Below, piece after piece: positions 24,477 to 54,207 of a DNA stretch of 64,000 nucleotides. Source of the DNA: an uncultured Desulfobacteraceae bacterium. Its GTDB lineage: Bacteria > Desulfobacterota > Desulfobacteria > Desulfobacterales > JALSRD01. The stretch covers positions 5,959 to 69,958 of the forward strand of contig CAYUAQ010000002.1 in the NCBI GenBank assembly GCA_964442705.1, in the 5' to 3' direction. Within the stretch, counting starts at the first letter, position 1. Every line of letters begins with the position of its first letter. A model generated the notes under the pieces. That model did no database searches. It saw only the letters and a program-made list of their open reading frames with translations, and was not told where the DNA came from. The translations under genes were made by a program, and so were the position numbers.

Positions 24477-24495
24477 CTGGGTTCATCCTCGCTCA

Positions 24496-26469: not shown

Positions 26470-26886
26470 TCACCTCCTGCCGACCAGATAGGACCCCAGG
26501 ATCGCCTCGGCCTCGATCTCGACCAGGTGCTCCGGTCTCGCCAGGGCCTTGACTTCGGCCATGGCGATGACCGGCCGGATGTCCCTGAACCACTCCGAGT
26601 ACGCCTTCAGGTACTCCCGGCCGCGGCTGATGTCGGTGACATAAAAGCGCACCCGCACGACATTGGACATACGCGCACCGGCCTGCTGCAGGACGTCTTC
26701 GATCTTCTGGAGGATGATTTTCGTCTGCAGGTAGGCATCCCCCGGGGCCTCCACCTCGCCCCTGGCGTTGGTGGTCGTCGTGCCGCCCACCAGGACCATA
26801 TTGCCGACCCGCACCGCCCGGCTGTAACCGGCCTTGTCCTCGAAGGGCGCTCCGGATGAATAATTTTTCCGCTTCAACAATTCCAT
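26470..26886 (-). CDS. RidA/YjgF-family reactive imine/enamine deaminase-like protein
   Basis: 138 aa. YSRAVRVGNMVLVGGTT..., ...NVVRVRFYVTD..., ...LVEIEAEA are typical of the YjgF/RidA fold. Confidence 0.8.
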   Translation of the reverse strand: MELLKRKNYSSGAPFEDKAGYSRAVRVGNMVLVGGTTTTNARGEVEAPGDAYLQTKIILQKIEDVLQQAGARMSNVVRVRFYVTDISRGREYLKAYSEWFRDIRPVIAMAEVKALARPEHLVEIEAEAILGSYLVGRR

Positions 26887-26979: not shown

Positions 26980-27708
26980 TCACGCGCGGTCGTCGAGCTG
27001 CGCAAATTCCTTCACCATGTTGTCGAGCAACCCGGCGGCCAGGTCATAAGGGTCCGGCAGCCGGGCGGTCTGCTCCAGCACGTTGCGGACCCCGGCCACG
27101 AAGGGGCCCGTTTTCCACTCGTGCCCGAATTCTTCGGCAAACCGGCGCACCATGTCCCGGGTGTATTCCGGGTGAAACTGCAGGCCGACCACCGGTCTGC
27201 CCGCCAGGACAAAGGCCTGGTTGGGGGTGGGCGGACTGCTGGCCAGCCGCACACCCCCGGGCGGCAGCGAAAAATGGTCCGCGTGCCAGTGGAAGGTCAC
27301 AAAGGGGTCGGCAACATCGCGAAACAGGAAAGAGCGGCGGCCCTCATCCGTCAAGTGCACGGGATACCACCCGATCTCCTCCTGTTCGCTGGGAAAAACC
27401 CGTCCCCCCAGGATCTCGGCCAGCAGCTGGGCACCGAAGCAGACGCCCAGCACGATCTTTCCGCGATCCACCACTTCGGCAATGAACCGCTTTTCGTCCG
27501 TCAGCCAGGGATGGGCAGCTTCTTCCCAGACATGGGGAGCGCCCCCCATGACCATCAGCCAGTCGAAATCGTCCGGCTGCGGCAGGGCCTGGCCGCTGCA
27601 CAGGTATGTCTGCGCGAGGGAGTGCCCCCTCTCCCGTGCCCAACGTGTGATGTGGGTCCGGGAAAAATCCAGCGAGTCGTGCTCCAGCAGGTGAATTCTC
27701 ATGGTCAC
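26980..27708 (-). CDS. class I glutamine amidotransferase-like protein (possible gamma-glutamyl amide hydrolase)
   Basis: 242 aa. Nucleophile elbow VLGVCFGAQLLA and His/Glu in LQFHPE. Starts 12 nt after the AldDH stop. Confidence 0.8.
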   Translation of the reverse strand: MTMRIHLLEHDSLDFSRTHITRWARERGHSLAQTYLCSGQALPQPDDFDWLMVMGGAPHVWEEAAHPWLTDEKRFIAEVVDRGKIVLGVCFGAQLLAEILGGRVFPSEQEEIGWYPVHLTDEGRRSFLFRDVADPFVTFHWHADHFSLPPGGVRLASSPPTPNQAFVLAGRPVVGLQFHPEYTRDMVRRFAEEFGHEWKTGPFVAGVRNVLEQTARLPDPYDLAAGLLDNMVKEFAQLDDRA

Positions 27709-29233: not shown

Positions 29234-30199
29234 TCACGAACGGCGGTCCTCCTTCTGCGGCCACAGCGAGGTGATCTGCGGCGCGTCCGTGCGATAGGTC
29301 AGCCGCTGGTCGACATCGTCTTCGCGGTAGAATTCGTTGGCCTTCTCCACACCCCGGTCGAACTTGGACATGCAGCGCATGGCCTTGTGGTTGTCGAGAA
29401 AGGCGATCTCGTGCACCAGCGCCCCCAGAAAAACGATGATGTGGCCGAAGGGGTCCACGAAGGACACCCCCTCGATGTCGATGATCACGTACTGGTCCGA
29501 AAGCGTGACGATGGGCGACCGCGGGGTGTCGCTGATCCCGATGGTCCGCACGCCGCACTGCTTGGCGTATTTCATCATCTCGATGGTACGCCGTGGGTAG
29601 CGCGGAAACGCCAGGACCACCATCAGGGTGTTGGGGGGCCCCTCGTTCAGGGCGTCGGTCAGTTCCCAGGAGAGGCTGGTGTCGACGGTCACGTCTTCGC
29701 GCACTTTTTTCAGCAGGTATCCGAAATGGTAGGCCAGTGTGGCCGAGGCCCGGTAGCCGACCACGTACACCCGCTCGGCGTCGAAAATCGTGCGGGCGAT
29801 CTTCCTGAACTCCTCTTCCGTAATCGAGGCCAGCATGTTCTGCAGGTTGGCGATGGCGTTCCGGCAGTAGCGCTGGATGGTGCTCCCCTCGTCGGAAACC
29901 GGGCGCGTGTGGGTCAGGCGCTCGGAACTGGTCAGTTCGGTGTGCAGCAGGGCCTTCATGTAGTGCAGAAAGTCGGCGTAGCCGGAAAATCCCAGGTCCA
30001 CGCTGAAACGGATGATGGTCGGTTCGCTGACGCCGCACTTTTCGGCGATCTCCCGTGCCGTCATCAGAAAGATGTTCTTGTAGTCACGCATGATCATGTC
30101 CGCCACCCGTCGCTTCTTGGGAGACAGGCGCGGATAGACTTGAATGATCCTGTCGAACAGGTCTTTCTTGGCTGACTTTATCTCTTCGCCCCGGGGCAT
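29234..30199 (-). CDS. RpiR/MurR-family transcriptional regulator (HTH_6 + SIS)
   Basis: 321 aa. HTH LMTAREIAEKCGVSEPTIIRFSVDLGFSGYADF, then a SIS-type sugar-isomerase-like fold (RVYVVGYRASATLA...). Confidence 0.85.
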   Translation of the reverse strand: MPRGEEIKSAKKDLFDRIIQVYPRLSPKKRRVADMIMRDYKNIFLMTAREIAEKCGVSEPTIIRFSVDLGFSGYADFLHYMKALLHTELTSSERLTHTRPVSDEGSTIQRYCRNAIANLQNMLASITEEEFRKIARTIFDAERVYVVGYRASATLAYHFGYLLKKVREDVTVDTSLSWELTDALNEGPPNTLMVVLAFPRYPRRTIEMMKYAKQCGVRTIGISDTPRSPIVTLSDQYVIIDIEGVSFVDPFGHIIVFLGALVHEIAFLDNHKAMRCMSKFDRGVEKANEFYREDDVDQRLTYRTDAPQITSLWPQKEDRRS

Positions 30200-30202: not shown

Positions 30203-30820
30203 TCAATGATTCCTTCCATCCAGGGAAGCCAGTGCGGTTTCGGCCGCCTCCCTGGCGGCCTGGATGTCCGAGGTGGAACCGGCCAGGTAGACCCGGCCGC
30301 TGGCACCGTAGACACTGACATGGTTGATGGTGATGCCGGCGGCTTTTTCCGCCTCGTTGGCCGCGTACCCGGCATAGCCGGCCGGCACGACCTCCAGGAT
30401 GTAGAGCGTGTCGTCGCTCAGCGACAGGCTGGCCGCCCGGAAGCGGTTGACGATCTGGCTCATGTAAGGGTTCAGCCGCTCGATGACCTCCGAGGACAGA
30501 ATCTTTGGCCGCAGCCGGTCGGCCTCACTGCAGCCCAGGTAGTCCAGCACCACCTCGCCCGCCAGCCGCACGTCGTCCGGGTCGTCGGCGTGCACTTCCA
30601 GCATGCCGTAGCTGCGCTCCACCACCAGCGCGCCGGGGCGCACGTTGGCCCTTTTCATGACCGTGTCGGTGATGGTGTTGATCTCCATGCCGGGCGCGAT
30701 TTCCAGGAACAGGGCCGCCTGGCCCGTGACGGGGTAGTACCCGCGGGAAGCCGAACCGATATAGGCCACCATCTGTTTCTGGAGCTGGTCGATGAAGGCG
30801 AAGGCTCTCAGGTCGATCAT
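30203..30820 (-). CDS. BMC-T shell protein, CcmP/CsoS1D-like tandem permuted BMC domains
   Basis: 205 aa. LRAFAFIDQLQKQMVAYIGSASRGY...LEIAPGMEINTITD...VVERSYGMLEVH... and LEVVPAGYAGYAANEAEKAAGITINHV...GRVYLAG; this matches the CcmP-type pattern. Confidence 0.85.
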   Translation of the reverse strand: MIDLRAFAFIDQLQKQMVAYIGSASRGYYPVTGQAALFLEIAPGMEINTITDTVMKRANVRPGALVVERSYGMLEVHADDPDDVRLAGEVVLDYLGCSEADRLRPKILSSEVIERLNPYMSQIVNRFRAASLSLSDDTLYILEVVPAGYAGYAANEAEKAAGITINHVSVYGASGRVYLAGSTSDIQAAREAAETALASLDGRNH

Positions 30821-32131: not shown

Positions 32132-32797
32132 TCAGCTGTTGGCAAAAACCTGCAGGCGAATGGGCCGCACCGGACCCCGGGCGGTGGTGGGGTCGATGTC
32201 TCCGGGTGCCAAGCCCAACTCCTCGGTCAGGATGCGCGCCACCAGCGTCTGGCAGGTCTGCCCCTGGCACAGCCCCATGCCGGCCCGGGTGATGCGCTTG
32301 ATGCCGTTTAACGTATGCATGCCGTTGCGGATGGCTTCCTTGATCTCCCCCTTGGTGATCTCCTCGCATCGGCAGATGACCAGGTCGTCGTCAGGGTCGC
32401 GGGTCTGCCCGCCGGTATCGGCCCCATCCGATGCGGCCGCCGGCGCCGCCGGGGTCGGTTCCCCCTTGAGCTGCCGGAAGCGCCGGATGACGCGCTCAAC
32501 GATCTCATCGAGCTGCGCCTCGGTAAACCCGTCTGCAGCATCCGCCGCGTCCCCGCCGGATGGCTTCTCCGGCGTTTCCGGCTCTTTGGAGTCCGTCGCC
32601 GGATCGGCGGACTCTTCCTCCGGCGAAGGGGCAGGAACGCTTTTCCCCGAGGCCACCGTTTTGACGCGAATGCCGTGCTCCCGAATCAGATCGGCGGCCG
32701 CCGAAGAGATACGGGCCCCCCCGGGGACTTCGATTTCCTTCTGTCCGGACCTCACCAGGTGCCGGACTTGCTCGGCGAATATGAAAACAGGTGCCAT
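32132..32797 (-). CDS. BFD-like [2Fe-2S] protein with N-terminal EutQ-N-like motif and internal encapsulation-peptide-like helix
   Basis: 221 aa. C-terminal ICRCEEITKGEI...GMGLCQGQTC (BFD-type). The central helix EAQLDEIVERVIRRFRQL is flanked by low-complexity Pro/Ala/Glu/Asp linkers. Confidence 0.75.
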   Translation of the reverse strand: MAPVFIFAEQVRHLVRSGQKEIEVPGGARISSAAADLIREHGIRVKTVASGKSVPAPSPEEESADPATDSKEPETPEKPSGGDAADAADGFTEAQLDEIVERVIRRFRQLKGEPTPAAPAAASDGADTGGQTRDPDDDLVICRCEEITKGEIKEAIRNGMHTLNGIKRITRAGMGLCQGQTCQTLVARILTEELGLAPGDIDPTTARGPVRPIRLQVFANS

Positions 32798-32836: not shown

Positions 32837-33217
32837 TTACTTTCCGGACTTCTTCGAACGCCGCGCCGACGGCCTGGCCTTTTTCGCTCGTGCGCCGGCC
32901 CCTGCGCCCCGGGCCTTGCGGTTTCCGGCGGGCGCCGCAGCCTCGGCCGGCTGCCCAACGGCGGCATCGATGTCGTCGGAAGGCCGCGGGATCACGTGCA
33001 CCGACACCACCTGTCCGACGCGCTCGCAGGCGGCGCTGCCGGCGTCGACGGCGGCCTTGACGGCCCCCACATCGCCGCTCACCATGACGGCCACCAGGCC
33101 GCCCTTGACCTTCTGTCGCCCCAGAAATTTCACCCGGGCGGCCTTCACCATGGCGTCCGCCGCCTCGATGGCGCCCACCAGTCCGTGGGTCTCGATCATT
33201 CCCAGTGCCTGCTGCAT
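32837..33217 (-). CDS. BMC-H shell protein (PduA/EutM type) with polybasic C-terminal extension
   Basis: 126 aa. [29 protein letters not shown]...VSVHVIPRP canonical BMC domain, plus a tail ending [28 protein letters not shown]. Confidence 0.92.
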
Positions 33218-33293: not shown

Positions 33294-33911
33294 TCATGGC
33301 TTGCGCCCCTCGAGGGCCTTCAGGGTTTCGTCGATCTTGCGGGCCGCGGCCTCGATCTCCGATTCGCTGCCCGCCAGGTAGATGCGCCCGGCGGCACCGA
33401 AGAAACGAATGTCCACCAGCCGCACGTCGCAGTGCTTTTCGGCCTCGTTGGCCGCGATGGACGAGTAGGCCGCCGGTGTAACCTCCAGCAGATAGACGTC
33501 GTCCCCGCCCAGGATCAGCATGCCCTTGCTGTTGCGGTTGATGATGACGGCCTGGTAGGGGTCGATCTTGTGAATCACGCTGGACGACAGGATGCTGGGC
33601 GCCAGGCGGTCCTGCTCGCGCAGCCCGAGTTCCTCCAGAATCATCTGCCCGGCGTGCAGCACGTCCTCGCGCTCGAAAGAGTGGATCTCCATCATGCCAT
33701 AGCGCCGCTCGACGATCATTTCTCCGGGCTTGCAGTTGGTGACCTTCAGGGAAATGTCGGCCAGGCGGTTGATCTCCACCCCCGGCAGTACTTCCACGAA
33801 AAGCGACGCCATGCCCTCCACGGACAGGAATCCCCGGCACGAGCTGGCAAACAAGGATGCGAACTGCGGCTGCATGCGGTCCAGATGACAAAAGGCTCTC
33901 AGTTCGGCCAT
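33294..33911 (-). CDS. BMC-T shell protein, CcmP/CsoS1D-like (second copy)
   Basis: 205 aa, paralogous to 30203-30820. LRAFCHLDRMQPQFASLFASSCRGF...VEVLPGVEINRLAD...LEVTPAAYSSIAANEAEKHCDVRLVDI...GRIYLAG. Confidence 0.85.
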   Translation of the reverse strand: MAELRAFCHLDRMQPQFASLFASSCRGFLSVEGMASLFVEVLPGVEINRLADISLKVTNCKPGEMIVERRYGMMEIHSFEREDVLHAGQMILEELGLREQDRLAPSILSSSVIHKIDPYQAVIINRNSKGMLILGGDDVYLLEVTPAAYSSIAANEAEKHCDVRLVDIRFFGAAGRIYLAGSESEIEAAARKIDETLKALEGRKP

Positions 33912-34010: not shown

Positions 34011-34865
34011 TCATTGCTCCGGCACATCCGCCGGAACGATCCGCACGCCGTACTCCCTGGCCAGGTCGCGCGCCAGCGGTGTGACGATGCCGCCGGCGGA
34101 CAGGGTCAGGCGGTCTGCGCCGGCCTCCCTGGCCTGACGGATATCCTGGGTCGAAATCAAGCGGCGGCCCGTTTCGCCTCTCTCCGGTCCGCCGGGGCCT
34201 TCGTCGGCCAAACCTGCCCGACCGGTGCTGCGGGCCAGCTTCTCGAAATGCTCGGCCAGTCGTTCCGTCTCGCACAGCTGCATGCCGAAGCGCTCCAGTT
34301 TTTCCAGCACGCGCTGCATCTCGCGGGCCATGGCCGGGTTGGCCATCCTGTCCAGCAGCGTGAATCCGTCGTTGGCGGCCAGCACCGGCTTGTTGGCCGC
34401 AAGGGCCGAGAGCACCAGGGCGCTGCCCTGATCGTCGGCCGCCATTTGCGCCACGCGCACCGCCGTCTGAAAGCAGAAGGTCGGCAGCACCAGCACGTCC
34501 GCACGCTCGAGCACCTTCTCGATGCCATCGGGTCCGACGGTGTCCAGGATGCACCGGCTGCCCGCTTTTTCCCGCACGTCACTTCCGCAGACCCATTGGC
34601 GCGCGGCATCCACGGTAAAGACGCCGGCGCGGCCGGCCAGAGTCTCGATGCGGCGCACCTGTGCCAGGGCCGCTTCCAGCCGCCGCACACCGGGGTGAAA
34701 GACGCACAGGACCGTCGGTCCGGTCTTGTTTCGGTGCGGCGCGCGTTTTTCAGCGGGCGGCTTCACCAGCCCCTCCTCCCTGAGAATTTCCAATACCAGC
34801 CGACGGATGCGTTGCCGCCGGTCGGAAAATGCTTTTCCCTGCTGCTGTGTCACTTCGTCTTCCAC
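34011..34865 (-). CDS. BMC-associated protein of unknown function (N-terminal EP-like helix, Rossmann/flavoprotein-like middle, C-terminal EutQ-N-like motif)
   Basis: 284 aa. N-terminus RQRIRRLVLEILREEGL plus a Pro/Lys linker. Middle ADVLVLPTFCFQTAVRVAQMAADDQGSALVLSALAANKPVLAAN resembles the flavoprotein (CoaC-like) fold. C-terminus LISTQDIRQAREAGADRLTLSAGGIVTPLARDLAREYGVRIV. Confidence 0.55.
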   Translation of the reverse strand: MEDEVTQQQGKAFSDRRQRIRRLVLEILREEGLVKPPAEKRAPHRNKTGPTVLCVFHPGVRRLEAALAQVRRIETLAGRAGVFTVDAARQWVCGSDVREKAGSRCILDTVGPDGIEKVLERADVLVLPTFCFQTAVRVAQMAADDQGSALVLSALAANKPVLAANDGFTLLDRMANPAMAREMQRVLEKLERFGMQLCETERLAEHFEKLARSTGRAGLADEGPGGPERGETGRRLISTQDIRQAREAGADRLTLSAGGIVTPLARDLAREYGVRIVPADVPEQ

Positions 34866-34911: not shown

Positions 34912-35733
34912 CTAGCGCTTGTCCAGGCAGGACAACGCGATTCCCAGCGGCGTGGTGAACTGCGGAAAAGGCGGCCGGAAAGTCTCCATTCCCAACGCCT
35001 TCTGAACGATGTCGCAAAACCCCTCCAGTTCGCAGGTGCCGCCTACCAGGCAGACGCGGTTGAGCCCCTCGAAGGGCTGCAGGCATCTTTCCACGATGGC
35101 GGCGATCTTTTCGATCACCGGCCGCACCATCGAAAGTACTTCCCGGCTCATGGCCGGGTCGGTCTTGATCTTTTCGGCCGCCTCGTAGTCGATGCCGCGG
35201 TTGCCGGCCACCACCAGGGTCAGGTGCACGCCGCCGGTGGCCTCGTCGTCGGTGAAGACCACGCCTCCCCCCTGGATCACGGCGATGCCGGTGGTGCCGC
35301 CGCCCACGTCGACGATGGCGCCATTGCCGATGCCCAGCACCCGGTTGGCGGCCGTGGGTTCGTCGGGGACGCTCAGTACTTCCAGTCCTGCGCCTTCGAG
35401 AATGTAGCGCGTGGCGTCCACGTTGGCGTCCTCGGTGCGCGGCGGATAGGAGGTGGCGCCCTGTTCGACGGGCAGCGGGCTGGCGCTGCGCATCTCCTCG
35501 ATCATCTCTCCAACCATCTGCCGCGCCCCGGCAAAATCGACGATCAGCCCGCTGCGCACCACTTCCGCCCGCCGCATGCGCGCGGCCCGCGGCCTTCCCT
35601 GCTCGTCGACGATGATCACGATGGCCTTGTAGGTCCCCAGGTCCACGCCCGCATACAGCCGTTCGGCCCCCGCGAAATCCCAGCGCTGCGGGCGATTGAC
35701 CAGGCGTGACAGCGCTTTGCCCGCATCGCTCAT
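34912..35733 (-). CDS. eutJ: EutJ-like actin/Hsp70-fold ATPase
   Basis: 273 aa. Phosphate-1 YAGVDLGTYKAIV and phosphate-2 IVDVGGGTTGIAV, with the size and layout of EutJ. ATGA overlap with the next gene. Confidence 0.8.
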   Translation of the reverse strand: MSDAGKALSRLVNRPQRWDFAGAERLYAGVDLGTYKAIVIIVDEQGRPRAARMRRAEVVRSGLIVDFAGARQMVGEMIEEMRSASPLPVEQGATSYPPRTEDANVDATRYILEGAGLEVLSVPDEPTAANRVLGIGNGAIVDVGGGTTGIAVIQGGGVVFTDDEATGGVHLTLVVAGNRGIDYEAAEKIKTDPAMSREVLSMVRPVIEKIAAIVERCLQPFEGLNRVCLVGGTCELEGFCDIVQKALGMETFRPPFPQFTTPLGIALSCLDKR

Positions 35734-36281
35734 AGGATGCTCCGCCCCAGCTGCGGGCTGGGATAGGGAATGACGGTGTGGCTCAGAACCAGGCCGCTGC
35801 CCTTGAGGGTGTCGATGCCGGCCTCCACGGCCGCGTGGATGGACGACACGTCGCCCGTCAGGGTGAGAAACGATTTTCCCCCCAGCCCGGTGGCGCAGCG
35901 GATCTCGATGATCTCGACATCCGCGGCCTTGACCGCGGCGTCGGCCGCCGTGATGGCCGAGGCCACCGAGAAGGTCTCGATGACGGCCAGGGAATCGATG
36001 GCCCGGATGCGGGTGGTGGCCGTCAGGGCCGGGAACACCGAGGCGTGCACGTTGGGGATGACGAAGTCGTCCACCAAAAATTCCCCGGCCGCCTCGCGGC
36101 CGACATCCGCGGCGCGCTCCACCGAGTCCACATCGCCGGACACCAGCACCATGAACTTGCCGGCACAGATGGGCTGTGCCATGACAAGGTCCACATCGGC
36201 GGATTTGAGCATTTCGTCCGCACTTTCCACGCCGCGGGCGACGCTGTTGAGCTCGATCATGGCGATGGCTTTCAGTTCCAT
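35730..36281 (-). CDS. BMC-T shell protein, PduT-like tandem BMC domains
   Basis: Start at MELKAIAMIELNSVARGVESADEMLK (36281, GGGGA RBS), 183 aa. Second domain LAVIETFSVASAITAADAAVKAADV. Cys in AQPICAGKF sits where PduT ligates its pore [4Fe-4S] cluster. Confidence 0.85.
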   Translation of the reverse strand: MELKAIAMIELNSVARGVESADEMLKSADVDLVMAQPICAGKFMVLVSGDVDSVERAADVGREAAGEFLVDDFVIPNVHASVFPALTATTRIRAIDSLAVIETFSVASAITAADAAVKAADVEIIEIRCATGLGGKSFLTLTGDVSSIHAAVEAGIDTLKGSGLVLSHTVIPYPSPQLGRSIL

Positions 36282-36366: not shown

Positions 36367-37698
36367 TCAACGACGGATGACAATATCAGGCCCCACCGAC
36401 ACGACCTCACCGTCGATGCTGGCGTGTACCCGCGCCCCCAGGGCGCCCTCGGGAATCTCGCCGACGAGATCCCCCTCCCGGACGCGGTCCCCGGCGCGCA
36501 CCACGGGCACGGCCGGTTTTCCCAGGTGCTGCTGCAGCGGAATGCGGACCTCGGCAATGTCGGCCGCCCCCTCTTGAAACGGCGGGTGCACATCGTAGCG
36601 CGCCACCTGCAGCCGCTCCATCAGGCGCCGGACCGGCACCTTGCGCGTTTCCAGGAACATCGAAGCCCGGTAGGTCTCGCGGCTGGGTTCACGTTTGACG
36701 CCTTCTTTAAGCAGTTTCTGTTTTACGGCCGCGTTGATTTCCCGCGGCGACAGCATCATGGGGCAGGCAAACTTCTCGCAGATGCCGCACTCGCAGCAGA
36801 TCAGGGCGTCCTCGAGTACTTCCCCCTCCATGCCCGGCGTGTAGGCCAGGTGCCGCATGATGCGGTGCGGCTCCAGCCGGTGGCCGATCAGGTAGCGCGG
36901 GCACAGGTCCGTACAGCGCGAGCACTGGGTACAGGCGGACTTGGCGATCATGCGCATCTGGGTGAGGCTGCGCTGCTTGCCCTGCAGGACATTGTGGCCG
37001 GCCGGCAGCACGATGACCCCGCTGGTGGTCTTGGTGACCGGCGCGCTCTCGTCTTCCAGCACGCGGCCCATCATGGGCCCGCCCGAGACGACGCCGTAAT
37101 CGGAGACCGTCGCCCCCCCGGCCAGGGCGATGACGTCGCGCACCGGCGTGCCGACGGGCAGCCGACAGACCATGGGCTGCCGCACTTCGCCGCACACCGT
37201 CAGATAGCGGTGGGTGACCGGTCGGCCGGCCATGGCGCGCGCGATGTTGAGCAGCGACTCCACGTTGCTGACCACGGTCTGCACGTGCAGCGGGATGCCG
37301 CCCTCGGGGACGATTTTGCCCGTCACCTCGTGCACCAGTATGAACTCGTCCCCGGCCGGGTAGAAGTCTTCCAGTTCGAACACGTCGACCCGCTCCCCGC
37401 AGCCCCGGGCGGAAACCGCCTCGCGCAGCGCCGACACGGCCTGCGGGTGCTTGGACTTCAGGCAGAGCGTGCCGCGGGGGGCATCGGTGCAGTCCATGAC
37501 CGTCAACAGGCCGTCCACGATGGTGGGCGCCTCCCCGGTCATCAGGTGCGGGTCACCGGCCAGCAGCGGTTCGCAGGAGGCGCCGTTGGCCAGCACCCGC
37601 TGCGCCTCGAACTGCAGCTTGACGTGCGTCGGGAACCCGGCGCCACCGGCGCCGACCACGCCCGCCGCCCGCACCTTGTCGACGATATCGGCTCTCAT
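36367..37698 (-). CDS. PduS/RnfC-like Fe-S flavoprotein (electron transfer)
   Basis: 443 aa. AGVVGAGGAGFPTHVKL, two ferredoxin motifs (CTQCSRCTDLCP; CCECGICEKFACP) and a C-terminal barrel-sandwich-like segment. Confidence 0.85.
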   Translation of the reverse strand: MRADIVDKVRAAGVVGAGGAGFPTHVKLQFEAQRVLANGASCEPLLAGDPHLMTGEAPTIVDGLLTVMDCTDAPRGTLCLKSKHPQAVSALREAVSARGCGERVDVFELEDFYPAGDEFILVHEVTGKIVPEGGIPLHVQTVVSNVESLLNIARAMAGRPVTHRYLTVCGEVRQPMVCRLPVGTPVRDVIALAGGATVSDYGVVSGGPMMGRVLEDESAPVTKTTSGVIVLPAGHNVLQGKQRSLTQMRMIAKSACTQCSRCTDLCPRYLIGHRLEPHRIMRHLAYTPGMEGEVLEDALICCECGICEKFACPMMLSPREINAAVKQKLLKEGVKREPSRETYRASMFLETRKVPVRRLMERLQVARYDVHPPFQEGAADIAEVRIPLQQHLGKPAVPVVRAGDRVREGDLVGEIPEGALGARVHASIDGEVVSVGPDIVIRR

Positions 37699-37988
37699 TT
37701 AGGCTTTCCGCCGGCCGCGTCGTCCATTTCCAGGTTGTCGACAATCCCGACCACCACGGCGTCCACGGGCACCGGTTCGTCGCGTCCGAAGGACTGCATG
37801 GCCGGCGTTCCCTGGGTGACGATCACCAGTTCCCCGAAGCCGGCACCCACCTCGTCGGCGGCGATCAGCACGCCGCCCTCGGGTTTCATGTTCCCGCCCA
37901 GCGGCTGAATGAACAGCAGTCTCAGCGCCGCTATGGCGTCCTTTTTCTTGCTGGACCACACGTTTCCGATCACTTTGGCTAATAACAT
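37695..37988 (-). CDS. BMC-P pentameric vertex protein (EutN/PduN/CcmL family)
   Basis: 97 aa. MLLAKVIGNVWSSKK...IAADEVGAGFGELVIVTQGTPA...VDAVVVGIVD. Confidence 0.88.
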   Translation of the reverse strand: MLLAKVIGNVWSSKKKDAIAALRLLFIQPLGGNMKPEGGVLIAADEVGAGFGELVIVTQGTPAMQSFGRDEPVPVDAVVVGIVDNLEMDDAAGGKPK

Positions 37989-38037: not shown

Positions 38038-38349
38038 TCATTTCAGATCCTCCGAGGCCTCGATGGCCGCGATGCTGGCCTTGACATCGGCGATGTCGCC
38101 GAAGACGCCGATCATGGTGATGTGCTGGGGGCACAGTCCCCGCAGGTCGAAAACGCGGACATCGGCGGCCTTCTCGGCCACGTCGGCGGCCGCGATCATG
38201 TCCACCAGCTTCCCCTGCACGAGCCCCACGGCCGTGAAGGGGATCTCCGCCTCGGCGAACACCTTCTTGCCGGCCGCCCCGGCCCGCTGCCGGAGCATCT
38301 CGAAGACCCCCGGCGCGGGGTGGGATATGATGCGCGTGTTGAATGCCAT
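38038..38349 (-). CDS. circularly permuted BMC-H shell protein (EutS/PduU-like)
   Basis: Start at MAFNTRIISHPAPGV (38349, AGGGGG RBS), 103 aa. AVGLVQGKLVDMIAAADVAEKAADVRVFDLRG...IGVFGDIADVKASIAAI parallels the EutS/PduU order of elements. Confidence 0.75.
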   Translation of the reverse strand: MAFNTRIISHPAPGVFEMLRQRAGAAGKKVFAEAEIPFTAVGLVQGKLVDMIAAADVAEKAADVRVFDLRGLCPQHITMIGVFGDIADVKASIAAIEASEDLK

Positions 38350-38544: not shown

Positions 38545-38823
38545 TCAATCGGCCTTGGGAATCGTGAATTCGATGTCGGCGTGCGGTCTGGGTATGACGT
38601 GCACCGAAACGAGTTCGCCGACGCGCTCGGCCGCGGCGCCGCCGGCATCCGTGGCCGCCTTCACGGCCCCCACGTCGCCGCGCACGAACACGGCCACCAG
38701 GCCGCCGCCCACGAACTCGCGGCCCACGAACTTCACCTTGGCTGCCTTGACCATCGCGTCGGCCGCCTCGATGGCGCCCACCAGGCCTCTGGTTTCAATC
38801 ATACCCAATGCTTGCTCGGCCAT
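38545..38823 (-). CDS. BMC-H shell protein (PduA/EutM type)
   Basis: 92 aa. [34 protein letters not shown]...[10 protein letters not shown]. Confidence 0.93.
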
Positions 38824-38902: not shown

Positions 38903-39430
38903 TCATCCGGCCGCCGCCGGCGGCCGGCCGTTTTTCAAACGAATGGCACGGGCCTGCATGGACCAATCCAGCGGCACCTCGATGGTCACCGTGGCGGTCT
39001 GGTCCATTTTTTTTCCCTGCCGCACCGCCGCCACACGGGCGTCGCCCAGTTCCCGCCCGGACCGGTCCAGGGCCGTGACAACGTCACCCTCCTCCGGCAG
39101 GGGCAGGTACTCGTAAGGCATCATCACGCTGGCGCGGCCGTCGCCGGGACCCTCGTCGACCAGGAAAATGGCCTGTCCCGGACAGATGTACACGCAGGTC
39201 CGGCAGGCTACGCACTTTTCGCCGTCCAAGTGCGGGATGCCGGTGATGTCGTCGCCCACGACGATGGCGCCGAACTTGCAGCTGGTTTCACACGGGTTGC
39301 AGGGAATGTCCTGCAGGCACTCGATGCAGGCCACCGGTCCCTTGCGGCGGCGTTCGGCTGAGGGCACTCCCGGCGCCTCCAGGAGTTCTTCTTCGGAAAG
39401 GTAGCCCGTAACAGCGGAATCATGCCCCAT
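38903..39430 (-). CDS. ferredoxin-like Fe-S subunit of the amine dehydrogenase complex
   Basis: 175 aa. Cys motifs CIECLQDIPCNPCETSC and CVACRTCVYICP. Overlaps the upstream subunit gene by 11 nt. Confidence 0.7.
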   Translation of the reverse strand: MGHDSAVTGYLSEEELLEAPGVPSAERRRKGPVACIECLQDIPCNPCETSCKFGAIVVGDDITGIPHLDGEKCVACRTCVYICPGQAIFLVDEGPGDGRASVMMPYEYLPLPEEGDVVTALDRSGRELGDARVAAVRQGKKMDQTATVTIEVPLDWSMQARAIRLKNGRPPAAAG

Positions 39431-40523: not shown

Positions 40524-40526
40524 GAA

Positions 40527-40844
40527 TCACTCCCTGGTCTTTGGGGGGCCCTTACCTCTCTGGGTTTCCACCACCATGCCGGCCCGGAGGGGCTCGACGC
40601 AGGTGCGGATGTTGGGCTGTCCGTTGACCACCATGATGCAGTCGGTGCAGCGGCCGATGGCGCAGAACATGCCGCGCGGTTCGTTGCGCCGGGCCGTGTA
40701 ACGGTGAACCATGACACCGTTGCTGTGCAGGGCCACGGCGATGGGTTCGCCTTCGTACCCCTCCATGGTCCTGCCGTCGTAAGTGAACTCCACCCGCGGC
40801 CCCTTTTCAAACTGTCCGAGTATGGGATGCGCTTCGATTCTCAT
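40527..40844 (-). CDS. small [2Fe-2S] subunit (HcnA / SoxA-N-terminal-like, Fer2_4 type)
   Basis: 105 aa. FTYDGRTMEGYEGEPIAVALHSNGV...FCAIGRCTDCIMVVNGQPNIRTC. Confidence 0.8.
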   Translation of the reverse strand: MRIEAHPILGQFEKGPRVEFTYDGRTMEGYEGEPIAVALHSNGVMVHRYTARRNEPRGMFCAIGRCTDCIMVVNGQPNIRTCVEPLRAGMVVETQRGKGPPKTRE

Positions 40845-40889: not shown

Positions 40890-42185
40890 CTAGTAAAACC
40901 CGAAGGGTTCGCCGAAGGTGAAATTGGACCCGATCAGCGGGATGCCGGTCATGGCACAGATCTCCAAGGTCAGCGAACGCAAATCCTCGCGCTCCAGGCT
41001 GGTCAGCTTGGTCTTGCCGGCGGCCTTGGCCAGGATGACGGCCTCGTTGGTCATGGCCTGGATGTAGTTGGCCACCTGCCGGGCGGCGCGGTCCACGTCC
41101 AGGCGAAGTCGCTCTTCGGGATCCTGGGTGCCGATGCCGAAGGCGCAGCGCCCCTCGTGGCAGCGCAGGCAGACCACGCACCCCATGGCGATCATGGCGC
41201 CGGTGCCGATGGCCACCGCATCGGCCCCCAGTGCCAGGGCCTTGGCCACGTCGGCCCCGTCCTTGATGCCGCCCGAGACGATCAGGCTGACCTCTTCCTT
41301 GACACCCATGTCCTCCAGGGAGCGCACGGCCTGCACCAGGGCCGGCAGCGTGGGAATGCCCAGGTGGTTGGAGGCCACCACCGGCGCCGCGCCGGTGCCG
41401 CCCTCGGCGCCGTCGATGACGATGCCGTCCACCCCGGCCTTGACCGCGATCTTGACGTCTTCCCAGACGCGGCCGGCGGCGATCTTGATGAAAATGGGAA
41501 TCTCACCGTCGGTGACGTCCCGCAGTTCCTCCATCTTGAGGCACAGGTCGTCGGCCCCGAAGATGTCGCCGTGGCGGGGATGGCTGTGCAGGTCGATGCC
41601 CTCGGGCAGCTGCCGGAATTCGGCGATCTCCTTGGTGATCTTGCTGGCCATCAGGTGCCCCGAGAGGCCCGGCTTGGCGCCGATGCCCACGATGATCTCC
41701 AGGGCGTCGGTGGCCTCGATGTTGCGCAGCGTGAAGCCTATGCGGCTGGGCAGGATCTGCACCACCTGCTTGTAGGAGTTGGCGCGCTCCTCGGGCAGCA
41801 GGCCGCCCTCGCCGTTGTTGATGGAGGTGCCCACGATGTCCGTGGCCTTGGCCAGGGCGATCTTGGCCTCCTTGCTCAGGGCGCCGTAAGACATGCCCGA
41901 GATCATGATGGGGGTTTCGATGACCAGGGGCTTCTTGGCGAAACGGGCGCCCAGCACCGTGCGAGTCTGGCAGTCCTCGCGGTAAGTGTCGATGGACATG
42001 CGCGTGAGCTGCGACGGCAGGAAGGTCAGGTCGTCAAAGTGCGGCAGCTTGCGCGGGGTGCCGCATCCCCGGATGCGGTGCTTGCCCGCGCTGGCCTTGT
42101 ACTTGATCTCCGATATGGTCTCCGCCGACCACACGCCCCGCTGGACATCCTTGGCTCTGGGGGTCTTCTTCTCTTCTGCGGCCAT
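40890..42185 (-). CDS. glutamate-synthase FMN-domain-like protein (MgsC/GlxD-like)
   Basis: 431 aa. ISGMSYGALS, DGAEGGTGAAP, GGIKDGADVAKALALGADAV, Cys cluster CVVCLRCHEGRC. ATGA overlap with the upstream gene. Confidence 0.85.
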   Translation of the reverse strand: MAAEEKKTPRAKDVQRGVWSAETISEIKYKASAGKHRIRGCGTPRKLPHFDDLTFLPSQLTRMSIDTYREDCQTRTVLGARFAKKPLVIETPIMISGMSYGALSKEAKIALAKATDIVGTSINNGEGGLLPEERANSYKQVVQILPSRIGFTLRNIEATDALEIIVGIGAKPGLSGHLMASKITKEIAEFRQLPEGIDLHSHPRHGDIFGADDLCLKMEELRDVTDGEIPIFIKIAAGRVWEDVKIAVKAGVDGIVIDGAEGGTGAAPVVASNHLGIPTLPALVQAVRSLEDMGVKEEVSLIVSGGIKDGADVAKALALGADAVAIGTGAMIAMGCVVCLRCHEGRCAFGIGTQDPEERLRLDVDRAARQVANYIQAMTNEAVILAKAAGKTKLTSLEREDLRSLTLEICAMTGIPLIGSNFTFGEPFGFY

Positions 42186-42886
42186 TATCCCTGTGCCCTT
42201 CGTTTGTGGGTTGGTTTGAAAAGAACGTACTCGTGACGCCCATAGACCTTGGGTACGATGGTGTGGAAATCCTCCACGCCGTGTTCGACGCCGTATTTCG
42301 CGAACAGGGCTTCCAGTGCGCTTTTTTCGCTATCCTCGACGGGGATCAGGCGCACGTTGCCACCCAGTTTTTTCTCGGCCGCCGCGTCCATCACGTGGAT
42401 GCGGCCATTGTACATAGACTCGCCGATGCCCTCGCCCACGCTTCCCAGGATCACGATGCGCCCGCCCAGGGTCATCTTGCCGGCCCAACGCCCCACGTCG
42501 CCGCACACGATGAGCGTGCCGCCCTTCATGCCCCAGCCCGCCCGGCTGCCGGAGTTTCCCCGGATCACGATGGTGCCGCCCACCATGGAGGGCGCCGCGT
42601 TGCTGCCGGTGTTCATCTCCACGATGATCTCGCCGGCCGACATGTTGTCGCCGGTGTACCAGCCGGTGTTGCCCTCGACCACGATGGCGGGCCCCTCCAG
42701 GAATCCGCCCGTGTAGAAGCCCGTGCTGCCGTGCACGGTGATTTTCCCTTCCCCCTTCAGGGCGGTGGCGAAGTTGTGGATGGAGTGGGGGTTGTCGACT
42801 TCGATCTGGGCCTCTGTCTTGATCAGCTCCCGCAGCCGGCGATTGACTTCCCGGGAGCTCATGCCTGCTATGTCTAAACGGACCAT
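42185..42886 (-). CDS. GXGXG-motif protein (glutamate synthase C-terminal-domain-like; MgsB/GlxC-like)
   Basis: Start at MVRLDIAGMSSREVNRRL (42886). Repeated beta-helix motifs (HGSTGFYTGGFLEG, EGNTGWYTGDNMSAG, RGNSGSRAGWGMKGG). Confidence 0.85.
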   Translation of the reverse strand: MVRLDIAGMSSREVNRRLRELIKTEAQIEVDNPHSIHNFATALKGEGKITVHGSTGFYTGGFLEGPAIVVEGNTGWYTGDNMSAGEIIVEMNTGSNAAPSMVGGTIVIRGNSGSRAGWGMKGGTLIVCGDVGRWAGKMTLGGRIVILGSVGEGIGESMYNGRIHVMDAAAEKKLGGNVRLIPVEDSEKSALEALFAKYGVEHGVEDFHTIVPKVYGRHEYVLFKPTHKRRAQG

Positions 42887-43773
42887 ACCCGTACTCCTCC
42901 TGGATCCATCTCCGTGGCATAGACGTCGGAGACGATGGGGGTTAAACAAATCTGTTCCGATCCCAGCAGTACCGTTCCGTCGCCCTTTTCGAAGAACAGT
43001 ACGGGCTTGATGCCCAGCCGGTCCCGCAGGGCGCCGATTTTGTCGGCGGTGGAGGCCAGGATGGTGAACACGCCGTCGAAGGTTTCCAGTCCCTGGTGAA
43101 GGGCCGCCTCCAGGTCCAGTCCCTTCTCCTTCATCTGGTGGGCCAGGAAGTGAACCGCCATCTCGGAGTCGTTGTTGGTCTTGAAGCGCACGCCCCAGCT
43201 CTCCATACGGCGGCGCATGTTGAAGTAGTTGGTGAACTGGCCGTTATGCACGATGGCCAGCTCGGGGTAGAGGTAGGAGACGAAGGGGTGCGCGAAATTG
43301 ATGTTCTCCACACTCTCGGTGGCCAGGCGCACGTGGCCGATGCCGTGGGTGCCCAGGGTGGGCGGAATGTGGTGCTGCTCCTGCAGCTCGGCGGCCGACC
43401 CCTCGTCCTTGTATACCTTGATGCGGCGGCCCAGGGAGTGCACGCAAAGTTCCGGGTGGTCGTCGATGGCCCGGTGCAGGTCGGCCATGCGGGCGTCATC
43501 CATGTCCACGCAAGCCTCGTAGAAGGTGAAAACCCCCCGTCCCTGGTAGCAGCGCTCTTCGGAGATGCGCCCGTAGGCGCCGATGACCTGCTCCAGCTTT
43601 TCACGGTGCTCTGGTGCCGTCAGCGATACCCGCAGGTCGACGGTGTCCCGGTTTTCGTAGACCGCGATCCCCGTGGCGTCCCGGCCGCGGTGGATGAGTT
43701 CCTTGAGCATGCTGATCAGATCGTTTCCCAGCGTGGGGGAATCCTTGGCAATCAGCCCGGCGATACCGCACAT
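42874..43773 (-). CDS. class II (Ntn) glutamine amidotransferase-like protein (MgsA/GlxB-like)
   Basis: 299 aa. Met-Cys N-terminus MCGIAGLIAK (Cys nucleophile after Met removal). GHVRLAT, HNGQFTNY. Confidence 0.85.
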   Translation of the reverse strand: MCGIAGLIAKDSPTLGNDLISMLKELIHRGRDATGIAVYENRDTVDLRVSLTAPEHREKLEQVIGAYGRISEERCYQGRGVFTFYEACVDMDDARMADLHRAIDDHPELCVHSLGRRIKVYKDEGSAAELQEQHHIPPTLGTHGIGHVRLATESVENINFAHPFVSYLYPELAIVHNGQFTNYFNMRRRMESWGVRFKTNNDSEMAVHFLAHQMKEKGLDLEAALHQGLETFDGVFTILASTADKIGALRDRLGIKPVLFFEKGDGTVLLGSEQICLTPIVSDVYATEMDPGGVRVWSV

Positions 43774-43854
43774 GGTGGGCCTCCCGTATCGGCTTGAAAT
43801 GGCTCCGGGCGTCTGCGATCGCCCCCGGAGCAGTGATTTGTTTTCCGCCGCGCC

Positions 43855-45195
43855 TTAAAGGTGGTAGGCGTACTCGTTGAACTCCCAGTCGGTGACGGCG
43901 GTGCGGAAGCGCTCCACCTCGTGCTCCTTGAGCGCCACGAAGGCCTGCACCAGTTCCGGCCCCAGGGCCTCGCACAGGACCTTGTCGGCCTTGAAATCCG
44001 CCAGGGCGTCCTGCAACCAGAAGGTGACGGTCTCCAGGGTGCCGGGTTCGGCCCCGTAGACATCGTCCGGAGCCGGCTCGCCAGGCTCGATCTTGTTCTC
44101 GATGCCGTCCAGGCCGGCCGCCAGCACCGCCGCCAGCACCAGGTAGGGGTTGGCCGAGGCGCAGGGGCCGCGGTTTTCCACCCGCGTGGCCGATCCGCGC
44201 TCGTCGGGCACCCGGCAGTAGACGGTGCGGTTGTCCCAGCCCCAGGCGAGGTAGAAGGGGCAGAAGGCCCCCAGCACGAAGCGCCGGTAGGAGTTGATGG
44301 TGGGCGCCAGGATGGCGGACATCCCCTTGGCGTGTGCCATCTGGCCGCCCAGGAAGTACCGCAGCAGATCGGACACGCCGTGGTCGCCGGACGGGTCGTC
44401 GAAGAGGTTGCGGCCCGAGTCGGGGTCGAACAGCGAGGCGTGGATGTGGTAGCCGCTGCCGCCGTTGTCGCCCTTGGGCCGTCCCATGAAGGTCAGCAGC
44501 AGGTCGTGCATGGCGGCCACCTCCTTGGACACGTACTTGAAGGTGAAGGTCTGGTCCGCCATTTTCAGGGCGCTGTCGTACTTCCAGTTGATCTCGAACT
44601 GCCCGGGGAAAAATTCGTGGTTGAGGTAGATGATGTCCAGCCCCAGTTCGATGAACAGGTTCTGGAACTCGCGCAGCAGGCCCTTGGGGTCGACCACCGG
44701 GTTGACCTGGTAGACGCAGGAGGGGCTGGCGTTGTATGGCTGCCCGTCGGCATCGCCGCCCTGGTGGAAGAGGAAAAACTCCAGCTCCGAGGCCACCATG
44801 GGTTTGAGGTTCAGGTCTTCGTAGCGCTGGATGATGCGCTGCAGGACGTTGCGCGGGTCAACCCCCAGGGGTTTGCCGTCGGGCCCGTAGGCGTTACCGA
44901 TGAAACGCGCCGTGCCCTCCATGTAAGGCAGCACGGCGAAGGTGTCCGGGTCGGGCTTGATGGTCATGTCGCGCCACTGGATTTCATCTCCCAAGCCGGT
45001 GCCCATGGCCACATCGTTGGCGAAATCGACGGCATAGGTGGCCGTCACGTGGTTGCAGCCCTCCTCCAGCACTTGCTCCAGGCGCCGCGCCGGCACCAGC
45101 TTGCTGCGGCAGATGCCGTACAGATCCGGGAAGTCGATGCGCAGCGAATCGATGTTGGCGGCCTCTATCTGGGCCTTGATTTCCTGTAAGTCCAC
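43855..45195 (-). CDS. glutamine-synthetase-family ligase (GmaS/GlnT/PuuA-like gamma-glutamyl-amine synthetase candidate)
   Basis: 446 aa, GTG start with a GGAAGGGGG RBS. GS motifs SELEFFLF, NHEFFPGQFEINW, GSGYHIHASL, PTINSYRR, RVENRGPCASANPYL. First gene of the BMC operon. Confidence 0.85.
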   Translation of the reverse strand: MDLQEIKAQIEAANIDSLRIDFPDLYGICRSKLVPARRLEQVLEEGCNHVTATYAVDFANDVAMGTGLGDEIQWRDMTIKPDPDTFAVLPYMEGTARFIGNAYGPDGKPLGVDPRNVLQRIIQRYEDLNLKPMVASELEFFLFHQGGDADGQPYNASPSCVYQVNPVVDPKGLLREFQNLFIELGLDIIYLNHEFFPGQFEINWKYDSALKMADQTFTFKYVSKEVAAMHDLLLTFMGRPKGDNGGSGYHIHASLFDPDSGRNLFDDPSGDHGVSDLLRYFLGGQMAHAKGMSAILAPTINSYRRFVLGAFCPFYLAWGWDNRTVYCRVPDERGSATRVENRGPCASANPYLVLAAVLAAGLDGIENKIEPGEPAPDDVYGAEPGTLETVTFWLQDALADFKADKVLCEALGPELVQAFVALKEHEVERFRTAVTDWEFNEYAYHL

Positions 45196-45258
45196 GTTGC
45201 CCCCTTCCTTTAGTCAGGATTGAAACACACCGTTTATATAATGTTTTCAAATAATAAC

Positions 45259-45281
45259 ATGAAATGTAACTTAAATTTCAT
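45259..45281. promoter_or_regulatory. inverted repeat (ATGAAAT-N9-ATTTCAT) in the BMC operon leader, candidate operator
   Basis: Perfect 7-bp arms in the AT-rich 250-nt region upstream of the GS-like gene, just downstream of the candidate -10 box. Confidence 0.3.
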
Positions 45282-45296
45282 TTTTAACTATGGATT

Positions 45297-45325
45297 GTAA
45301 TAAACGATACAAAAGAGCATGTCAA
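45297..45325 (-). promoter_or_regulatory. candidate sigma-70-type promoter of the BMC super-operon
   Basis: Minus strand: TTGACA (45325-45320), 17 nt, TATTAC (45302-45297). About 100 nt upstream of the GTG start. Confidence 0.4.
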
Positions 45326-45446
45326 GCCTGTCTTTGAAAAAATTAGGGGATTCGGCGGCGAAAGACCCAGCCGTTACGAGGGGACTTCGTGCTTTTCAGG
45401 GAAAAGGGTTGTGAACGGTACAACCTGAAGCGCCCGGTTTCACCGG

Positions 45447-54204: not shown

Positions 54205-54207
54205 ATC

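Follow-up and report, generated by a model that had tools for sequence, protein, structure and literature searches.

The DNA analysed here is a window of 64,000 nt from an uncultured Desulfobacteraceae bacterium (GenBank assembly GCA_964442705.1, contig CAYUAQ010000002.1, positions 5,959 to 69,958). Its minus strand carries, from 45195 to 23175, a cluster of 26 co-directional genes of about 22 kb that encodes a bacterial microcompartment (BMC), and our subject is the set of four genes at its head (45195-40890): a glutamine synthetase (GS)-family ligase and a trio of small glutamate synthase-like proteins, namely an Ntn-type amidotransferase, a GXGXG protein and an FMN subunit (Table 1). A preliminary description of the sequence had named this quartet, and open reading frames (ORFs) and Pfam matches place all four genes where it had them. 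The 22 co-directional genes downstream, which extend to 23175, are separated by at most 99 nt except for two gaps of 195 and 275 nt. They encode, in order, a Fer2_4 protein, a Pyr_redox_2 flavoprotein, a Fer4 protein, a BMC-H, a GrpU-type BMC-H, a BMC-P, a PduS-like protein, a PduT-type BMC-T and an EutJ-like protein; then a conserved protein without assigned family (unk284), a CcmP-like BMC-T, a BMC-H, a BFD/SO_alpha_A3 protein, a DAO-family flavoprotein and a second CcmP-like BMC-T; and finally an RpiR regulator, an acylating aldehyde dehydrogenase (AldDH), a class-I glutamine amidotransferase (GATase), RidA and the tripartite ATP-independent periplasmic (TRAP) transporter DctPQM. Pfam E-values of the operon genes range from 1e-17 to 1e-103, which rules out chance.

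The quartet also heads the operon, as had been proposed. A terminator-like hairpin at 45425-45407 closes the upstream Mo-oxidoreductase and Fe-S genes, which end at 45447, and the AT-rich spacer of 250 bp upstream of the ligase holds a TTGACA and a motif kept in eight of nine relatives. Together, hairpin and spacer make the ligase the first gene of its unit, and a strong ribosome-binding site (AAGGAAGGGGG) precedes it. A sigma-70 scan did not call the conserved promoter upstream of the ligase, because its -10 element is non-consensus.

Table 1. Features of the BMC operon and its borders, in the order of transcription of the operon
Feature	Position	Strand	Basis or remark
Promoter/operator region of the operon	45196..45446	-	TTGACA, conserved GTATTACAA element, TGAAT..AATTACAT motif; 3' of terminator-like hairpin
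GS-family gamma-glutamyl:amine ligase (predicted), 446 aa	43855..45195	-	Gln-synt_C E=3.7e-103; catalytic core intact, ammonium site lost
Ntn (class II) amidotransferase, 299 aa, MgsA/GltB-N-like	42874..43773	-	GATase_6/7; Cys1 present (MCGIAG)
GXGXG subunit, MgsB/GltB C-terminal-like	42185..42886	-	233 aa from probable ATG start
FMN glutamate-synthase-domain subunit, 431 aa	40890..42185	-	Glu_synthase E=6.8e-103; GltB-type Fe-S Cys motif CVVCLRCHEGRC
2Fe-2S protein (Fer2_4), HcnA/SoxA-N-terminus-like	40527..40844	-	Domain match
Pyr_redox_2 flavoprotein, SoxA-middle/HcnB/proline-DH-alpha-like, 367 aa	39420..40523	-	BFD/A3 tail split off
4Fe-4S ferredoxin-like protein	38903..39430	-	Confined to BMC versions of the module
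BMC-H shell protein	38545..38823	-	Domain match
Permuted BMC-H, GrpU type, putative Fe-S pore	38038..38349	-	Domain match and GLCPQ motif
BMC-P (EutN/CcmL) vertex protein	37695..37988	-	Domain match
PduS-like flavo-Fe-S protein	36367..37698	-	Complex1_51K, SLBB, Fer4, RnfC_N
PduT-type tandem BMC-T, pore Cys (PIC)	35730..36281	-	183 aa from internal ATG
EutJ-like actin/Hsp70-fold protein	34912..35733	-	Domain match
Conserved BMC protein unk284	34011..34865	-	N-terminal amphipathic helix, UbiX/EpiD-like fold, ~41-aa C-terminal module
BMC-T, double-stacking type, CcmP/CsoS1D-like	33294..33911	-	Comparison with relatives
BMC-H with basic C-terminal tail	32837..33217	-	Domain match
BFD [2Fe-2S] + SO_alpha_A3 protein	32132..32797	-	Detached C-terminus of shell-less Pyr_redox_2 protein; encapsulation-peptide-like helices gained
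DAO-family flavoprotein (SoxB/HcnC/proline-DH-beta-like), 401 aa	30900..32105	-	From M89; Cys-rich C-terminal tail
Second BMC-T, double-stacking type	30203..30820	-	Domain match, relatives
RpiR/MurR-family regulator (HTH_6 + SIS)	29234..30199	-	Domain match
CoA-acylating AldDH (PduP/EutE family)	27721..29193	-	N-terminal encapsulation peptide (KLIERIVETVVDRLARE + linker)
Class-I glutamine amidotransferase-like (C26/PuuD-like fold)	26980..27708	-	Domain match, relatives
RidA/YjgF (Endoribonuclease L-PSP) imine deaminase	26470..26886	-	Domain match, relatives
TRAP transporter	23175..26194	-	Domain match; DctP 25103-26194, DctQ 24496-25047, DctM 23175-24476
Glutamate dehydrogenase (ELFV family), adjoins cluster	21204..22661	+	Also linked in L013, L020

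The shell and core of this BMC correspond to MIC6, a type of the 2021 BMC catalog, where three loci from anaerobic Deltaproteobacteria are listed and, as far as the entry for the type goes, neither a function nor a signature enzyme is given (Sutter et al., 2021; PMC8217296). The operon has the MIC6 shell set (two BMC-H, one BMC-P, two CcmP-like BMC-T, a PduT-type BMC-T plus a BMC-H of GrpU type) and its core, as described there: an AldDH whose N-terminus bears an encapsulation peptide, a Fer2_BFD (pfam04324) protein and a DAO (pfam01266) protein with a Cys-rich C-terminal extension, again in a deltaproteobacterial host. It differs in that ligase and synthase genes head the operon here, whereas the written description of MIC6 (PMC8217296, Supplementary Data 2) does not mention GS- or glutamate synthase-like genes. 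Searches of the available literature library, also for MIC6, Desulfobacula and Olavius, returned no described link between BMCs and GS/glutamate synthase-like genes or N-methylglutamate.

We aligned the ligase with E. coli and Bacillus GlnA, E. coli PuuA, two GmaS proteins from canonical N-methylglutamate (NMG) pathway clusters and two ethanolamine-type ligases. It retains all metal, ATP and glutamate residues (E129, E131, E212, E220, H269, H271, R321, R339, R344, E357 and R359), and all four residues of the ammonium site are lost (D50V, S53T, Y179V and, in the flap, E327F), as they are in every member of its clade, where D50, S53, Y179 and E327 are replaced by V or A, T, V and F. The ligase is therefore not a glutamine synthetase. 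Comparable losses occur in GmaS, PuuA and the ethanolamine-type ligases (our alignment; PMC7948447), and the positions of RhGmaS Ala48' and Trp300, which stand for the lost Asp50' and flap Glu, are Val and Phe in our ligase, a loss of the GmaS type. The protein scores below the cutoffs of the equivalog models for GlnA (TIGR00653; 321.2 bits, cutoff 429.15) and PuuA (NF045547; 268 bits, cutoff 650), and its clade is 31-35% identical to all of the references (32% for the window ligase and E. coli PuuA). Its best PDB sequence matches are true GSI-alpha enzymes (272 bits, versus 204-214 for GmaS structures). In a neighbour-joining tree, it does not cluster with GlnA but lies in a clade of its own, with members at 45% identity or more from Desulfobacterales, Gammaproteobacteria/SAR324 and Chloroflexota; the sister group consists of puu-like ligases of Bacillota and Actinobacteria. 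Both its site residues and its place in the tree thus bear out the expectation that it would stand apart from GlnA, and we predict a competent gamma-glutamyl:amine ligase that is no GS and no orthologue of GmaS.

The trio has the MgsABC-type arrangement, with an Ntn GATase that has its Cys1, a GXGXG protein and an FMN subunit beside a GS-like ligase, as in L086 and in our reference NMG cluster on a Paracoccus alcaliphilus plasmid (L087). For the FMN subunit, identity is 47% with MgsC and 36% with the FMN domain of E. coli GltB, while the Ntn and GXGXG subunits match MgsA and MgsB at 30-34% identity and GltB weakly or not at all. However, the FMN subunit has the GltB [3Fe-4S]-type motif C-x5-C-H-x3-C, plus one extra Cys and with no insertion in the loop, whereas both reference MgsC proteins lack the Fe-S cysteines and have a 16-residue insertion there instead. 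The motif is present in 49/59 clade members, and the Bacillota homologue carries an additional N-terminal Fer4 domain. Since a site of the glutamate synthase (GOGAT) type is kept, the synthase step is probably electron-coupled and GOGAT-like, not redox-neutral. The trio would exchange electrons, and may be a GOGAT analogue that converts gamma-glutamyl amide + 2-oxoglutarate + 2 e- to N-substituted glutamate + glutamate. The statement in the preliminary description that the quartet is exactly GmaS plus MgsABC thus holds for the domain architecture but not further: the ligase, 31% identical to GmaS and without its Asp177, belongs to a separate clade, and the FMN subunit carries the Fe-S motif. 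Two smaller observations concern the trio. The GXGXG gene probably starts at ATG 42886, 13 nt within the preceding gene as in relatives, and not as the 254-aa ORF with a TTG start. In three shell-less loci (L041, L065 and L068), two glutamate synthase-like trios stand in tandem 3' of the ligase, the second with a variant Cys-rich loop that has an insertion.

The flavoprotein dehydrogenase expected downstream of the quartet is also found, as is an acylating AldDH with an N-terminal encapsulation peptide. In shell-less relatives of the module, Fer2_4, Pyr_redox_2-BFD and DAO proteins are encoded contiguously, the architecture of HcnABC, the flavin-containing opine dehydrogenase OdhABC, the D-hydroxyproline dehydrogenase LhpBEF and archaeal L-proline dehydrogenase, enzymes whose site of action is the nitrogen of an amino acid or secondary amine. 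In the window these parts are split: residues 137-221 of the BFD protein are 43-51% identical to the C-terminus of the shell-less Pyr_redox_2 proteins, and the BMC version is therefore the same complex divided into five genes. The best PDB match of the DAO protein is the beta subunit of P. horikoshii proline dehydrogenase (1y56_B of PDB entry 1Y56; 178 bits), with matches also to the soxA and soxB families; the Pyr_redox_2 protein matches soxA at positions 171-503 only. The dehydrogenase lacks a folate (GCV_T) domain, and no SoxD or SoxG was found, so that the complex is neither MgdABCD nor a heterotetrameric sarcosine oxidase, and a free aldehyde is to be expected because the folate domain is missing. 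The operon does encode a flavoprotein of the SoxA/SoxB-related kind, but one that resembles HcnABC, opine and proline dehydrogenases. We propose that the DAO-family protein, which is read as 401 aa from M89 instead of the full 489-aa ORF, as its relatives are, acts as the aldehyde-forming signature enzyme. Compared with the HcnABC group, the five-gene split, the encapsulation-peptide-like helices on the BFD piece and the proposed N-substituted glutamate substrate would set it apart.

Which enzymes would act inside the shell is suggested by their termini. The AldDH begins with KLDEKLIERIVETVVDRLAREE, then a linker; encapsulation-peptide-like helices occur on the BFD protein (EAQLDEIVERVIRRFRQL) and on unk284 (IRRLVLEILREEGL). 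The quartet has no encapsulation peptides, and its proteins are equal in length to shell-less homologues. Because such helices are found on the AldDH, the BFD protein and the octopine dehydrogenase variants described below, and on none of the quartet, ligase and synthase are probably cytosolic, and the C-N dehydrogenase and AldDH lumenal. The gene content also suggests electron transfer across the shell via PduS, the ferredoxin-like proteins, unk284 and two shell proteins with GLCPQ (GrpU) and PIC (PduT) motifs as putative Fe-S pores. Pfam and PDB sequence searches with unk284 gave no match. Its AlphaFold model (pLDDT 79.7) has an N-terminal helix followed by a UbiX/EpiD/Dfp-type flavoprotein fold (Foldseek E ~1e-4, TM to target 0.5-0.6), which makes it a possible lumenal FMN electron carrier. 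The N-terminus of the BFD protein (32663-32785) and the C-terminus of unk284 (34026-34148) have in common a stretch of some 41 residues (27% identity, pairwise E=1e-6, '...TPLARDLAREYGVRI') that may be a docking element.

The module is conserved well beyond this window. We scanned one genome per species and scored 80 loci (L numbers), both with tblastn searches that used all proteins of the window and with maps of ORF families. In 28 Desulfobacterales loci (ligase 54-96% identical), ligase, trio, Fer2_4, Pyr_redox_2, Fer4 and shell genes follow in that order. In Desulfobacula L001 and L034, module genes are interleaved with shell genes in a different order; in another Desulfobacula locus, the ligase stands beside DctPQM, two AldDH, BFD, DAO and RpiR; and in a Bacillota locus (L074), ligase, trio, shell genes and AldDH recur. 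Searched from the other side, the BMC-specific BFD protein has 734 relatives at E <= 1e-10, and two of their contigs (L093 and L094; 58-59% identity) keep the full order from the FMN subunit via AldDH, GATase1 and RidA to DctPQM. Had the quartet been fused to the operon by accident, it should turn up at unrelated loci while the shell genes stay with the dehydrogenase; this is not what is seen, and the 28 loci, the Desulfobacula interleaving, the Bacillota locus and the BFD-side search support a functional tie between quartet and BMC. The ligase itself has thousands of relatives. Marine and sediment Desulfobacterales, a gutless-worm symbiont among them, account for most of these relatives. The type has many hundreds of metagenomic relatives, compared with the three loci of the catalog entry.

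In two of these loci the DAO protein is replaced, beside a ligase of the same clade, by a protein of the octopine/nopaline dehydrogenase family (L062:7144-8436, another deltaproteobacterium; L074:4908-6194, the Bacillota metagenome-assembled genome). Both carry an N-terminal amphipathic encapsulation-like peptide (EKIDSIVKAVVEELGRRG in L062, where a Gly/Ser/Pro-rich linker follows, and QLETIVEAVIKQIQGR in L074), and these variants point to the same chemistry.

The module also exists without a shell. In Gammaproteobacteria, SAR324 and Chloroflexota, the genes after ligase and trio encode Fer2_4, a Pyr_redox_2 protein fused to BFD/SO_alpha_A3, and a DAO protein of 572-643 aa with a C-terminal poly-ferredoxin domain. 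These modules adjoin genes for an aldehyde:ferredoxin oxidoreductase (AOR)-type enzyme and a ThiS-like protein; four SAR324-type loci have in their place frmA and fghA, which score 713 and 410 bits and exceed their equivalog cutoffs. An aldehyde product is supported by this independent association with aldehyde oxidisers. The shell-less AOR was also considered as the formaldehyde-specific FOR type, and is of the broad AOR type (619 bits to 1aor versus 299 for FOR). By its gene content, the shell-less version appears to define an uncharacterised amine-catabolic module apart from the canonical NMG pathway.

From the gene content, residues, synteny and encapsulation-peptide-like sequences observed, a set of reactions, with their topology and substrate, can be proposed. 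The best explanation, which we hold to be probable though only just, is that the front end of MIC6 is an NMG-pathway-like route that converts a small primary amine to an aldehyde within a protein shell. The amine would enter via TRAP in the window, and via a LivJ-type ABC transporter or an APC permease in relatives. The cytosolic ligase, driven by ATP, would join it to the gamma-carboxyl of glutamate; the trio would hydrolyse the amide on its Ntn subunit and channel the amine to C2 of 2-oxoglutarate/glutamate on the FMN subunit, in a probably reductive, 2-oxoglutarate-consuming reaction that yields an N-substituted glutamate. This would cross the shell, and the DAO/BFD complex would oxidise the N-alkyl C-N bond to give glutamate and aldehyde, with RidA perhaps assisting hydrolysis. 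The encapsulated AldDH would convert the aldehyde to acyl-CoA, and electrons would leave, or return to the synthase, via PduS, the ferredoxin-like proteins and the two Fe-S-pore shell proteins. Finally, glutamate dehydrogenase (GDH) would restore 2-oxoglutarate and free NH4+, a proposed role that fits its place beside the cluster here and its linkage in L013 and L020; RidA likewise fits the pathway. For the class-I GATase-like protein, hydrolysis of gamma-glutamyl amides is a possible function.

The proposed route shares with the NMG pathway (GmaS, MgsABC, MgdABCD) the domain quartet, the SoxA/SoxB-related flavoprotein dehydrogenase that follows it and the loss of the ligase's ammonium site. 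It departs from that pathway in the clade of its ligase, the Fe-S motif of its FMN subunit and its dehydrogenase, which has Fer2_4, BFD and Fer4 partners and neither a folate domain nor delta or gamma subunits; in addition, folD and purU are absent from the window system, and the route would be encapsulated, ends in an acylating AldDH and belongs to anaerobic hosts.

Several points weigh against this proposal. The ligase falls below the cutoff of the GmaS model (TIGR03105; 319.9 bits, cutoff 469.6). In GmaS, Asp177 is strictly conserved and catalytic, and Gln175 is a pocket residue (PMC7948447); the ligase has Asn and Tyr at these positions, though it retains E179, E186 and N188, and its Asp50' loop is lengthened by a PuuA-like insertion of 12 residues. 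Since the FMN subunit differs from MgsC by its Fe-S motif, the N-alkylglutamate synthase step is drawn by analogy, not orthology. Enzymes of the dehydrogenase's family can cut on the glutamate side, giving 2-oxoglutarate and the amine and no aldehyde, and the Fer2_4, Pyr_redox_2 and Fer4 proteins could sit on either side of the shell. The combination of GS-like, DAO, AldDH and class-I GATase proteins also matches the logic of PuuABCD, and the clues to the substrate conflict: frmA and fghA in SAR324 suggest formaldehyde, while the PuuA-like loop, the transporters with solute-binding proteins and an Arg in the TRAP binding protein suggest a larger, possibly acidic amine.

One alternative is that the DAO complex directly oxidises an imported secondary amine, such as an opine or an N-methyl or N-carboxyalkyl amino acid, and that the role of ligase and trio is limited to recovering or reworking the primary amine or ammonia released. 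The DAO/Pyr_redox_2 family, with OdhABC and LhpBEF among its members, acts on sarcosine, proline and opines, L062 and L074 encode octopine dehydrogenase-like enzymes that bear encapsulation peptides, and the TRAP binding protein keeps its carboxylate-binding Arg. We nevertheless regard this as unlikely, as it leaves unexplained why an ATP-dependent ligase without an ammonium site should head the operon and co-vary with the dehydrogenase in shell-less genomes, and the order GS, trio, dehydrogenase mirrors a linear pathway.

About as unlikely is a protection scheme like that of the Puu pathway (E. coli puuA-D, L089). Here the ligase would gamma-glutamylate a diamine, amino alcohol or other bifunctional amine at one end, the DAO enzyme in the role of PuuB would oxidise the opposite end to a gamma-glutamyl aldehyde, the AldDH would oxidise this as PuuC does, the class-I GATase would take off the glutamate as PuuD does, and the trio would only recycle nitrogen. 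All the enzymes for it, including a C26-like GATase, are in the cluster; the ligase has the PuuA-like loop insertion, and its sister clade consists of the puu-like clusters of Bacillota and Actinobacteria. RpiR, TRAP and a GS-like ligase also typify two clusters on Paracoccaceae plasmids (L084 and L085), which look like gamma-glutamyl-ethanolamide pathways and encode RpiR, an N-formylglutamate amidohydrolase-like protein, TRAP, a GS-like ligase, AldDH and an iron-type alcohol dehydrogenase. The Puu and ethanolamide pathways thus share with our system ATP-dependent gamma-glutamylation by a GS-like enzyme without an ammonium site, and an AldDH; however, the ligases are only 31-34% identical, and those pathways have neither trio nor shell. 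Moreover, the trio is the most constant partner of the ligase in every lineage, while GATase1 occurs in some loci only; the DAO protein, with its Fe-S partners, belongs to the heteromeric SoxB/HcnC type and not to the stand-alone oxidases of the PuuB type; and a gamma-glutamyl aldehyde, being bulky, would be out of the ordinary as a BMC intermediate.

The last alternative, raised in the preliminary description, of an archaeal-type GS/GOGAT set for ammonium assimilation that merely adjoins the BMC genes is essentially excluded: folds, catalytic cores, the GSI-alpha enzymes as best PDB sequence matches of the ligase and the GltB-type Fe-S motif are those of GlnA and GltBD, but the ammonium-site residues are lost clade-wide, the ligase is under the GlnA cutoff (321 versus 429), the GOGAT parts are three small proteins with GltD absent, the context is catabolic, and linkage to shell genes (28 loci, the interleaving, the Bacillota recurrence), dehydrogenase and aldehyde oxidisers is kept across phyla.

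For the favoured NMG-like route, the identity of the amine can be narrowed only in part. Uptake genes vary among loci: a LivJ-type ABC transporter in many, TRAP in the window and in L025, L032, L051, L069, L093 and L094, and an APC permease in some relatives. The TRAP binding protein of the window retains the carboxylate-binding Arg, at the position that we take from the SiaP reference sequence, and this Arg is absent from the proteins of the ethanolamine-type clusters, to which it is 20% identical and not orthologous. Solved structures are remote matches (90 bits for lactate-binding 2zzv, 61 bits for ethanolamine-binding 4uab), and with this low identity no ligand can be assigned. Beside the TRAP genes of the Desulfobacula variant locus L025, a GCS2 gene (YbdK-type carboxylate-amine ligase) lies directly upstream (L025:4912-6087). 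Candidate substrates are methylamine, C2-C3 amines and amino alcohols, omega-amino acids and aminosulfonates. The NMG-like logic and frmA/fghA in SAR324 point to methylamine; the missing GmaS Asp, the PuuA-like loop, binding-protein-dependent uptake and the TRAP Arg point away from it. That Desulfobacterales would oxidise monomethylamine anaerobically, via gamma-glutamylmethylamide and N-methylglutamate to formaldehyde within the shell and on to formyl-CoA by the AldDH, with electrons passing through the Fe-S-pore shell proteins to sulfate respiration, is a specific proposal that we consider unlikely. If it were true, this would be the first formaldehyde-confining organelle, and a genetic basis for the 'non-methanogenic' methylamine sink of sulfate-zone sediments (bioRxiv 10.1101/2024.07.16.603764).

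In known metabolosomes, the aldehyde arises through lyases, glycyl-radical enzymes or aldolases. As a signature system, a flavoprotein C-N dehydrogenase that is fed by an ATP-dependent ligase and wired through Fe-S shell proteins would be new, and would combine a metabolosome with glutamate-mediated amine oxidation. MIC6, listed without a signature enzyme, hereby gains a testable function, a gamma-glutamyl/N-substituted-glutamate route into the shell, for what has been an orphan organelle abundant in sediment sulfate reducers. Should the amine be methylamine or another osmolyte-derived amine, the proposal would also bear on the consumers of 'non-competitive' methanogenic substrates under sulfate reduction.

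Some further features of the locus are recorded here. Directly upstream of the operon (45447-48887, minus strand) lie genes for an IclR regulator, a 730-aa molybdopterin oxidoreductase and a 160-aa 4Fe-4S subunit. The Mo-oxidoreductase (45890-48082) was considered as a formate dehydrogenase that would support a C1 route, and is ambiguous: it scores 335 bits against PhsA and 320 bits against Fdh-alpha, its best families, and falls far short of the cutoff of each. Oxidoreductase and 4Fe-4S subunit also adjoin the ligase together, divergently oriented, in L008, L010 and L053, and the Mo subunit lies near the ligase in L069. Other genes recur upstream of the ligase in L005-L007, L026, L009 and L028-L029, namely a divergent ApbA/PanE-family reductase, a 4HBT thioesterase, a creatinase/M24 hydrolase, a ThiF-like protein and a sensor kinase. 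In this core, which has no phosphotransacylase, CoA could be recycled by the thioesterase. At the other end of the cluster, an ORF of 185 aa (26342-26899) was set aside in favour of the overlapping RidA ORF. The G+C content is 63-67% over the BMC operon and Mo-enzyme genes (28000-48000) versus 54-58% in 48000-56000, which encodes an arylsulfotransferase, a weak radical-SAM match, GntR and TctC, and the drop near 48000 may mark an island boundary.

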